Source: Candidatus Latescibacterota bacterium (GTDB taxonomy: Bacteria; Latescibacterota; UBA2968; GCA-2709665). From it: a DNA stretch of 64,000 nt. The notes beneath the pieces were generated by a model. The model saw only the letters and a program-made list of their open reading frames with translations, was not told the DNA's origin and ran no database searches. Positions 38,824 to 41,314 of the stretch are shown here, piece by piece (positions within the stretch are counted from its first letter, which is position 1; the number at the start of each line of letters is the position of its first letter). Where the stretch lies: contig OZ242180.1 in assembly GCA_965205485.1 (NCBI GenBank), positions 2,848,001 through 2,912,000 on the forward strand, in the 5' to 3' direction. Made by a program: the position numbers and the translations under genes.

Positions 38824-39888
38824 GTGGCAAGGGGACGCAGAAAAAGCCCTGAACGGTCAGGTTCGGCGAATGTGTCCGGGGGTGCAGTACGGGCGGCGAT
38901 TTATGGAACCGGTGCGTGGGCGAACCAGACCCACATTCCGAACCTGAAGAAGCTGGGCGTGGACGTCGTGGCAGCCTGCGACGTGGATGCCGAGGCCCTG
39001 CGACGTACGGCGGAGCGTTTTGAGATCCCGGCGGTCTATGCCGATGGTCGCGAAATGGTAGAGAACGAGCGGTTCGATGTGCTCTATTCGATTGTGCCCG
39101 CCTTTGCCCGCACGGACGTCGAAATCAGAGCCGTGGAACGCGGAATTCATCTGTTCAGCGAAAAGCCGCAGGCGCTTCGGATGGCCGTGGCGCTCGAGAT
39201 CGACCGGGCGGTCAGGAACGCGGGCGTGTTGAGCACGGTCTGTTTTCGGGAACGGTACCGACCGCTCTTCGGGGAGGCGCGGCGGATACTTTCCGATAAG
39301 CGGATCGTACACGTCGTGTTTCGATCCGTGGGCGGGCCGCCGCCGCGCAAGGAGGGAGTGGAACAGGCTTCCTGGTGGCGCCAGACACACAAATCGGGCG
39401 GTCCGGCGCTCGACTGGGGCGTGCATGCCGTGGATTACATCCGGTTTGCGACGGGATTGGAAGTCGAAAAAGTCCAGGCGTTCTATTGTGAGCAGTCCGA
39501 GGTCTTCAGCGAACCGCTCTCGTCCTCCTTCCATTTCCTGCTGAACAACGGCGCGACGATGGCGATGACGTTCGTACGTGCGGACCCGTCCGGAACACCG
39601 CAGCCGTGGTTCACGTTTTTCTTCGAAGGCGGACGACTGGAGATCTACAGTTACGACAGGATCGATCTGAACGGAGAGACGGTGTACCGCTGCGGGGAAT
39701 TCGATCCCTGGTTCGAGCAGGATCGGATCTTCGTTGAGGCGGTGCGTTCCGGTGATCGCGAAGGGATCCTGAATGATTATCACGATGGACTGTATTCCCT
39801 GGCGCCGGTTCTCGCTGGTTGGGACTCTGCCCGGCAGGGCGGTCGATGTATTGACCTCAAGGCCTACTTCAGTCAGGAGGGACATTGA
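38824..39888 (+). CDS. Gfo/Idh/MocA family oxidoreductase
   Basis: AIYGTG.WA, HLFSEKP, SGG..LDWGVH..D. Confidence 0.88.
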   Translation: MARGRRKSPERSGSANVSGGAVRAAIYGTGAWANQTHIPNLKKLGVDVVAACDVDAEALRRTAERFEIPAVYADGREMVENERFDVLYSIVPAFARTDVEIRAVERGIHLFSEKPQALRMAVALEIDRAVRNAGVLSTVCFRERYRPLFGEARRILSDKRIVHVVFRSVGGPPPRKEGVEQASWWRQTHKSGGPALDWGVHAVDYIRFATGLEVEKVQAFYCEQSEVFSEPLSSSFHFLLNNGATMAMTFVRADPSGTPQPWFTFFFEGGRLEIYSYDRIDLNGETVYRCGEFDPWFEQDRIFVEAVRSGDREGILNDYHDGLYSLAPVLAGWDSARQGGRCIDLKAYFSQEGH

Positions 39889-40721
39889 TGGAAGATAAGG
39901 GATATGCGAATCCCGATCTGCTGATGACGCCCGCGCAGTTGCATGTTCGCCTCCAGGACGCGTCGATATGCATTGTGGACGTCCGGCCCACGCACGAGTA
40001 CGTTTCCGCGCACATCCCGGGGGCGCTGCACCTGGACCTCTACGGTATCAGCCTCAATAACACCGGACGAGAGGCATTCGATGCGTTTATGTGGACGCTG
40101 GCCTACCTGATGGGAAGCCGGGGGATCAGCTCGGATACGACGGTGGTGTTTTACGAGAACGATTCCGGAATGCGCGCGGCCCGAGGTTTCTGGATCTGTG
40201 AATATCTGGGTCACCGCGACGTGCACGTTCTGGACGGGGGGCTTCATGCCTGGACGGCGGCGGGATTCGAGACCACGGTTGAAGTCCCTGTCCCGGTTCA
40301 GGCCACGTTCGCGATGGCGCCCGACGAGACGCGCCACATCGGATTCGAAGAGATTCGGGATTCGCTGGGGAAAGCCGATTTCGTGCCGCTGGATACAAGG
40401 AGCGACGACGAGTATTACGGTCGGGTGGCGCGTTCGGCCCGTGGCGGCGCCATTCCCGACGCGGTGCATATCGAATTTCTGGAAAATCTGGACGAGTCGG
40501 GTGAATTCAAGCCCGCGACGGAGTTGCGCGAAATGTACGAGCGGGCTGGCGTGACGCAGGAGCAGACGGTGGGGTGTTACTGACAGGGCGGGTACCGTTC
40601 CTCCCATTCGTACCTGGCGTTGCGCCTGCTGGGTTATCGAAACGTGCGCAACTATATCGGGTCGTGGAAGGAGTGGGGCGACCGGCTGGATCTGCCGGTG
40701 GAAGTTCCGGAGGCAAGGTAA
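39888..40721 (+). CDS. Two-domain rhodanese/sulfurtransferase, probable selenoprotein (in-frame TGA at 40581-40583)
   Basis: AGGAGG RBS; HIPGA, VLDGG, D.RS..EY.G, AIP.A; then [39 protein letters not shown]...EAR-TAA (40719-40721). Confidence 0.85.
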
Positions 40722-40790: not shown

Positions 40791-41264
40791 TCAGACCCCT
40801 CCCATTTCACAGACGACTTCAAAGTCTGGTTTCATGACGGGCTGGACGGATAGACGCTGGCCCCGCCGGACAACCAGCATTTCACCCAGTTCAGGATTGG
40901 CCTTGAGGTCTTTAAGACGAACATACGTCTTGAAGGCCTTTTTCCATTTGACGTCGACGGAGTACCAACGGGGATCGTCCGGCGAGGATTTGGCATCGTA
41001 GTAGTTGCTCTCCGGGTCGAAGGCCGACGGGTCGGGGTAGGCCGCCCGCACGATTTCCGCCAACCCCGCAATGCCGGGTTCGTCACAATTTGACTGATAG
41101 AAGAGGACGATGTCGCCCGTTTGCATATCGTCCCGGATGAAGTTTCGGGCCTGGTAGTTGCGAACGCCGCGCCACTTTCCGGTGCTGTTCGGCCGTTTGT
41201 TCTTCAGGTCGTCGAAGCTGCATTCGCTGAATTCGCACTTCATCAGCCAGTATCTTGTCGGCAT
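40791..41264 (-). CDS. EVE domain protein
   Basis: YWLMK, W.GVRNYQARNF, AYPDP, PRW..VDV, RLSVQPV. Confidence 0.92.
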   Translation of the reverse strand: MPTRYWLMKCEFSECSFDDLKNKRPNSTGKWRGVRNYQARNFIRDDMQTGDIVLFYQSNCDEPGIAGLAEIVRAAYPDPSAFDPESNYYDAKSSPDDPRWYSVDVKWKKAFKTYVRLKDLKANPELGEMLVVRRGQRLSVQPVMKPDFEVVCEMGGV

Positions 41265-41314
41265 AATCTCCTCGTATACAATTGGGGCGCGGCGCAATCC
41301 GCGCGTTTTTTCGT

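Follow-up and report, generated by a model that had tools for sequence, protein, structure and literature searches.

The question raised by this locus is whether a UGA codon that interrupts a rhodanese gene at its catalytic position is read as selenocysteine (Sec) and, if so, which signal directs the insertion. The gene lies on the forward strand of the window, i.e., the whole stretch of 64,000 nucleotides that was analyzed, to which coordinates refer unless another sequence is named; numbers with a plus sign count nucleotides past the UGA.

Reading frame and catalytic codon

The gene encodes a two-domain rhodanese (SseA/COG2897-type sulfurtransferase) and spans 39888 to 40721, corresponding to 277 aa with the UGA counted as Sec. 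An AGGAGG Shine-Dalgarno-like sequence was assigned from the sequence at 39875 to 39880, and in the ORF list the ATG shares one base with the TGA of the upstream gene (39886 to 39888). The reading frame was verified in the sequence as originally predicted: it opens at the ATG at 39888, reaches the TGA at 40581 to 40583 (residue 232, the predicted Sec codon) after ...VGCY, and stays open for 45 more codons up to the TAA at 40719 to 40721. The placement of this TGA on the catalytic Cys was borne out by alignment, as the column matches the Cys of Azotobacter vinelandii RhdA (1e0c, HCQTHHR) and of the Thermus rhodanese (1uar, YCRIAER). The downstream rhodanese signature, claimed to be intact, is present, and Pfam PF00581 matched in two stretches, giving two domains with the catalytic residue in the C-terminal one.

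The structures 1e0c and 1uar are the best solved relatives, matching over the full length with E values of 2e-41 and 6e-40 and with their catalytic Cys at residue 232. Both are Cys enzymes with other active-site loops (CQTHHR and CRIAER versus UQGGYR here), and their substrates are therefore not transferable. Assignment to 3-mercaptopyruvate sulfurtransferase (PRK11493 equivalog) was rejected, the score being 101.8 bits against a cut-off of 250. Neighborhood clustering of 81 loci, a noisy comparison containing shadow ORFs, yielded no conserved operon hinting at a substrate; the Gfo/Idh/MocA and ceramidase-like genes found upstream are shared by just 12 to 13 of the 81 loci, i.e., by the genus. 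On the other side, an EVE-domain gene (40791 to 41297, minus strand) is convergent with the rhodanese gene, and the terminator scan gave no terminator-like site directly past the rhodanese stop.

The codon itself was checked in sequencing data, where contigs (rather than raw reads) of two public runs, possibly from the source sample, cross the TGA unchanged. Contig X1 corresponds to 39850 to 40603 with no differences, and contig X4 corresponds to 39903 to 40633 with one difference, at 40522. Metatranscriptome contigs of relatives also span the region, representing sequence coverage that says nothing on transcription, strand, or level. Public proteins of these genes are annotated as 230 to 232 aa, ending at the TGA, which means that the database entries for these enzymes are 231-aa truncations without the catalytic residue.

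Distribution of Sec and Cys forms

Among 41 related genomes, the ortholog contains one TGA in 38 and none in 3; in the assembly of one of the 38 (G031:C241:5464-6284) the ortholog is split into two frames. A wider homolog set was assembled from 30 loci of related genomes, the best 80 of 331 genome matches, and the best 80 of 409 metagenome matches, giving 152 distinct loci after removal of duplicates. The pairing of Cys codons with TGA expected for a selenoprotein was found at the column, with TGA in 95 of the 152 loci, TGC in 41, and TGT in 16 (57 Cys codons), and the 95 TGA loci span two phyla. The closest named records among the best 80 of the 331 genome matches were Candidatus Latescibacterota MAGs, some of them filed as Gemmatimonadota, with Poribacteria next. 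Relaxed selection past the TGA was refuted, since the mean amino acid identity to this gene rises from 0.62 upstream to 0.91 downstream (n = 94).

In a tree of the upstream protein, every TGA form falls within one clade of 106 (FastTree support 0.95), which includes a further 11 Cys forms from 7 lineages and stands beside a Cys clade of 46 members. Parsimony on this tree gave 6 Sec/Cys changes, and in a smaller IQ-TREE run two Cys forms nest among Sec forms (support 100/98 and 99/98). The nested lineages are likely to represent reversion from Sec to Cys, the backbone support being mixed. The nearest relatives of the Sec clade are Cys forms at about 50 to 55% identity, and Sec may therefore have arisen separately in this clade, which may also hold with respect to the Sargasso Sea members of the family described below. 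Eight distant homologs from the phylum search (five flagged with one TGA, three with one TAA) were considered as a second Sec clade and rejected, as all are Cys enzymes: the column was read in six of them as TGC or TGT, the other two being likewise, and the TGA stops seen in the flagged homologs sit near the N-terminal edge.

The suggestion that the adjacent Cys of the C-Y-U motif could form a selenenyl-sulfide found no support. Among the 95 Sec forms, 51 have Cys at residue 230, 28 have Pro, and 16 have Ser, and 10 of the 57 Cys forms have Cys there; C-Y-U is no family trait. The single-sequence AlphaFold model had a pLDDT of 35 and was unusable for the geometry of Cys230 and Sec232. Assignment to the CxU rhodanese selenoproteins (NF041203, form 3) was rejected at 43.8 bits against a cut-off of 115, with Cys230 in just over half of the Sec forms. 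A different residue, Cys104 (40197 to 40199), was observed in 97% of Sec forms versus 14% of Cys forms; Tyr73 and Val30 distribute in the same way, and thus Cys104 may just mark the clade.

Sec machinery

A search for selA, selB, selC, and selD had been proposed along with the prediction of Sec, and all four were found to be encoded, each above its family cut-off. The genes for selA, selB, and tRNA-Sec (selC) are clustered at C1:3225171-3228699, and selD lies apart from them at C1:2394761-2395684. The selD gene itself contains an in-frame TGA, past which lies a standard hairpin with the loop GGUC at a spacing of 17 nt. The tRNA-Sec has the anticodon UCA and the discriminator G; of the 150 candidates scored out of 947, one tRNA alone exceeded the tRNA-Sec cut-off, and ARAGORN gave one UCA-anticodon tRNA among 49 genes. 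No extra domain was seen in SelB by eye. The statement that TGA serves as an ordinary stop elsewhere was confirmed for the genome, where it ends 1161 of 2157 long ORFs, more than any other stop, and recoding must therefore be site-specific, with no global reassignment. Among the 41 relatives, selA is present in 39, and both misses (G018 and G032, fragmented assemblies) have selC and selD. Since the 3 relatives with the Cys form also have the Sec machinery, the Sec/Cys switch is deduced to be gene-specific.

A distal RNA element

In reviews, the bacterial SECIS is placed immediately past the UGA, and a subset of selenoprotein genes is said to misfit the consensus model (PMC13188914, PMC7026636, PMC12013277). 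The bSECIS model has limits of 3 to 9 nt for the loop, 4 to 16 bp for the stem, G in the first two loop positions, an energy of −7.5 kcal/mol or lower, and 16 to 37 nt between the UGA and the apical loop. In the rhodanese gene, no hairpin with a loop G was found at 16 to 37 nt past the UGA, and folds of the first 47 to 100 nt gave nothing above shuffles (z of 0.36 to 0.79). All 10 further UGA candidates examined in this genome had a proximal hairpin with a loop G, at spacings of 16 to 27 nt; these genes were chosen by eye from 21 sites, partly for having hairpins, two of them do not reach −7.5 kcal/mol, and one (TlpA-like) is doubtful.

Two helices, P1 and P2, were taken from the consensus fold of the Sec forms, of which 93 were used after two loci at contig ends were left out. 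The 5' strand of P1 (CCGUUCCU, 40595 to 40602, +12 to +19) follows an 11-nt spacer, and its 3' strand is AGGAGUGG (40669 to 40676, +86 to +93). The enclosed domain (40603 to 40668) contains a predicted imperfect extension of the stem, pairing +21 to +24 with +81 to +84 and +36 to +42 with +63 to +69, whose conservation is less strict. P2 (40681 to 40699, +98 to +116), the predicted SelB-binding SECIS, is a 6-bp hairpin with the 7-nt loop UGGAUCU (40687 to 40693).

The stem, loop, G position, and energy of P2 (6 bp, 7 nt, UGG, and −11.4 kcal/mol) fall within the bSECIS limits. Its spacing does not, as 103 nt of sequence separate the loop from the UGA, and the distance would come to about 22 just with P1 closed. 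P2 resembles the bacterial SECIS (bSECISearch model; Escherichia coli fdhF) in having G at the second loop position with a further G after it and in its coding-region site 3' of the UGA. In E. coli the essential stem-loop starts 11 nt past the UGA, and the 11 nt ahead of the upper stem-loop of fdhF equal the spacer ahead of P1 (PMC8659212). P2 differs in lying at 103 nt rather than 16 to 37 nt, beyond a domain of 82 nt that is closed by a covarying helix. One of this genome's proximal hairpins also has a UGGA loop.

The element was found to follow the Sec codon. All 14 P1 and P2 pairs together with UGG were present in 84 of 93 Sec forms versus 0 of 57 Cys forms, the loop UGG in 93 of 93 versus 8 of 57, and a P2 energy of −7.5 kcal/mol or lower in 90 of 93 versus 5 of 57. 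Part of this contrast is ancestry, since a single outgroup clade contributes 46 of the 57 Cys forms, and the tree has mixed support along its backbone. One or two pairs are broken in the other 9 of the 93 Sec forms, 3 of which retain 4 of 6 P2 pairs. The element is eroded in all 11 Cys forms (7 lineages) nested in the Sec-rich clade. When +12 to +125 was folded, so that the first 11 nt were masked, P1 and P2 both had a probability above 0.5 in 89 of 93 Sec forms versus 0 of 57 Cys forms, and the same was reached in 1 of 300 synonymous-codon shuffles of this gene; all pairs were kept in 56 of 20000 shuffles. When this genome's region was folded without constraints, the minimum-energy structure lacked P2, which forms once those 11 nt are masked; a competing UGA-proximal hairpin at +3 to +17 is also biased to Sec forms. 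Synonymous sites in the genus are almost frozen over codons 231 to 247 and low again near 253 to 265.

With 150 of 2177 candidates scored, a covariance model of the element found this locus alone in the genome, and the search for an Rfam match gave none, apart from one chance match with an E value of 3.6. Applied to 17 other loci, the model gave only weak matches (25 to 37 bits) on three Cys-type paralogs, attributable to shared coding sequence.

Covariation of P1 and P2

Across 73 distinct Sec sequences, 98.1% of the cells were paired and 73 double changes were counted, neither value being reached in any of 500 shuffles; in slid registers, 37 to 52% of the cells were paired. Because the shuffle control takes no account of kinship, all site pairs in the gene were also ranked. 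Among 146,521 pairs of 544 variable sites, the pairs 99-115, 15-90, 100-114, and 18-87 ranked first, fourth, fifth, and sixth by Watson-Crick fraction, with ties. Pair 15-90 had 8 co-changes on the upstream-DNA tree, the top of 363 well-paired pairs, with a maximum of 5 in the identical-base control, and the other three had 3 to 4 each, which is inside the control range. Pair 99-115 links a silent change in an Asp codon to a Val/Ile change. This genus has mostly U-A at 15-90 and C-G at 18-87, and family f2 has the opposite; given these opposite GC directions, GC bias is no explanation for the covariation. Eight of the 18 counted pairs are invariant, and since the protein sequence fixes most of the columns in P1 and P2, the covariation signal rests on about four pairs.

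Proposed decoding and alternatives

The predicted site-specific decoding as Sec, giving a 277-aa product, is strongly supported by the Sec machinery, the Sec/Cys pairing, and the Sec-linked RNA element, and stands as a prediction at the protein level. From these sequence data we are close to certain that the gene is a real selenoprotein gene, its UGA very likely being read as Sec. It is also probable, at a clearly lower level, that the signal is the hairpin at +98 to +116, brought beside the codon by the long-range helix. With slightly less assurance again, the element is proposed to be a natural class of bipartite bacterial SECIS, in which a helix would loop out 82 coding nt and dock a SelB-binding hairpin at the canonical distance from 100 nt away.

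Domain 4 of SelB binds the SECIS and brings the Sec-tRNA when the ribosome reaches the UGA (PMC7026636, PMC4513850). With the UGA in the A site, the ribosome would cover about the next 11 nt and P1 would close just outside it, looping out the folded 82-nt domain. The P2 loop would then lie about 11 + 1 + 4 + 6 = 22 nt-equivalents from the UGA, which is inside 16 to 37 nt and also within the spacings of this genome's proximal hairpins, and SelB-GTP-Sec-tRNA would bind the UGG loop and deliver Sec. The distal position is likely due to the codons just past the UGA encoding the invariant active-site loop (QGGYR), the signal having been moved to the less constrained C-terminal tail. Rhodanese catalysis follows a ping-pong mechanism, in the cycle of which Sec232 would carry the transferred sulfur as Se-S.

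The alternative that survives best, though it is considered unlikely, is that P2 is a SECIS acting at a distance and that P1, instead of setting the spacing, is a separate stimulator of read-through or pausing, like the long-looped 3' stems of alphavirus UGA read-through or those next to some eukaryotic Sec codons. The start of P1 at 11 nt past the UGA would fit such a stem, and long-looped stems 3' of a UGA are reported to boost read-through, with no drop upon deletion of the loop (PMC3159437). The alphavirus and plant-virus stems share with P1 a basal helix close past the UGA, a 3' strand far downstream, suggested to sit where the protein is least disturbed, and their detection through synonymous-site conservation; they differ in involving eukaryotic ribosomes and a near-cognate tRNA and in having no factor-binding hairpin after the helix, so that the likeness is an analogy only (PMC3159437). 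The spacing from the P1 3' strand to P2 is a constant 4 nt in 78 of 78 Sec forms tabulated, which would be needless if P1 merely stalled ribosomes. A P1 that only stalls would equally need no adjacency of the kind that brings the P1-closed distance into agreement with the 16 to 27 nt of the proximal hairpins.

Rather less probable is insertion of Sec via a weak or cryptic proximal signal (a UGGC loop at +32 to +35 or the +3 to +17 hairpin), with P1 and P2 serving mRNA stability or folding. Proximal SECIS predictions were given for the Sargasso family members (PMC1088965), the +3 to +17 hairpin is the consensus when just 60 nt are folded, and the nearly frozen synonymous sites of codons 231 to 247 would suit such a signal. 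These frozen sites are, however, accounted for by P1 and its extension, and the loop of the +3 to +17 hairpin would sit inside the ribosome. G33 and G34 occur with equal frequency in the Cys (6 of 7) and the Sec forms (72 to 76 of 78) and are therefore deduced to be determined by the protein, whereas the UGG loop of P2 follows Sec.

It is improbable, to a greater degree still, that the UGA is read as another residue (Cys by a SelC*/tRNA-ReC-type tRNA, or Trp) or mostly terminates as a regulated truncation. In some bacteria, a tRNA-ReC inserts Cys at UGA together with a SECIS (PMC13582414), and in E. coli Sec is inserted by just about 30 to 40% of ribosomes (PMC7026636), by which a truncated product is likely to be made here too. 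The single tRNA above the tRNA-Sec cut-off, also the single UCA tRNA in ARAGORN, with its discriminator G, the presence of selA and selD, and the use of TGA as the main stop all argue against this reading. A pseudogene or sequencing error, which the public annotations ending at the TGA might suggest, has a negligible probability given the same codon in 95 loci of two phyla, the better conservation downstream than upstream, and the agreement of independent contigs; the TGA at 40581 to 40583 is no assembly error, no chance occurrence, and no lone nonsense mutation.

Relation to known selenoproteins and SECIS elements

The original prediction placed any novelty in the instance, lineage, and context of a known type of selenoprotein. 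The known type was confirmed: Sec-containing COG2897 rhodaneses with Sec at the same column were predicted from the Sargasso Sea in 2005 (PMC1088965), and they are listed in PMC9312934, PMC2398784, and PMC13188914, in the last as form 4, UxxG. The novelty lies instead in the distal recoding element, which had been missed. The rhodanese protein is a new member of this already predicted family, the UxxG motif with Sec at the catalytic column being present as UQGG in a comparison made by eye with two Sargasso sequences and the review table. Like the protein described here, the Sargasso Sec rhodaneses are SseA-type with the UGA at the catalytic Cys (TY-u-QAGVRAAH and TY-u-QGGIRAAH) and the same downstream Y-x-G/A-S-x-x-E signature; unlike it, the two sequences end in YDGSMGEW and YDASMGEY, without the DRLDLP tail that carries P2 here (PMC1088965). 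By eye rather than by computation, they have a short hairpin about 10 to 24 nt past the UGA. The representative accessions MCY3690685.1 and MQG53192.1 were absent among the cluster members listed.

The bipartite arrangement of P1 and P2 is, on balance and judged from sequence comparison, a probable new SECIS architecture in this gene. A 3'-UTR SECIS in E. coli has reportedly been studied and may bear on the novelty of a distal element. In the available portions of the literature on distant, long-range, and atypical SECIS, a scope mostly outside subscription papers, no natural looped-out or distant bacterial SECIS was found, and unexplained atypical cases are acknowledged there (PMC13582414, PMC13449736, PMC12013277). 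The clade supplies a concrete, covariation-backed structure for one case of a SECIS that misfits the consensus. If the bipartite reading is true, SECIS searches limited to about 60 nt would overlook such genes, and some selenoprotein genes without a detectable SECIS would be explained. The SECIS would then be freed from the codons beside Sec, allowing bacterial Sec insertion with fewer constraints on the following residues, and the architecture could ease the design of recombinant selenoproteins.

Other UGA candidates in the genome

A heuristic genome-wide UGA screen gave further candidates among the matches listed. An M20/AbgB-type amidohydrolase (L143:262-1581; G000:C1:2012661-2013980, plus strand) has an in-frame TGA in HG-U-GHN with a proximal hairpin; one TGA was found in 37 of 37 matching genomes (41 searched), at the same position in 25 of 25 loci read. 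A 92-aa DUF5069 protein (L139:383-658; G000:C1:703682-703957, minus strand) has an in-frame TGA in YP-U-PAD and a proximal hairpin with a UGGA loop, the TGA being shared by most close relatives and replaced by TGC in G022. Neither protein appears in the available part of the review's selenoprotein table (PMC13188914), and DUF5069 is considered a candidate for an unlisted selenoprotein family. At L142:239-1126 (G000:C1:5003318), a TGA with a strong GGGU-loop hairpin lies upstream of a TlpA/ResA CxxC domain and may represent either an N-terminal Sec extension or merely an upstream stop.

Candidates of known type were observed at L137, L138, L140, L141, and L153 of the same genome: two SelW-like proteins (CxxU), an AhpD-like protein (CxxU), a UGSC-like protein, and two tandem thioredoxin-fold proteins (one UxxC), with anchor-D and dockerin-like tails. 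One SelW-like gene has a tandem duplication of its 5' part, TGA and hairpin included, with the copies 91 nt apart (G000:C1:2757756 and 2757847).
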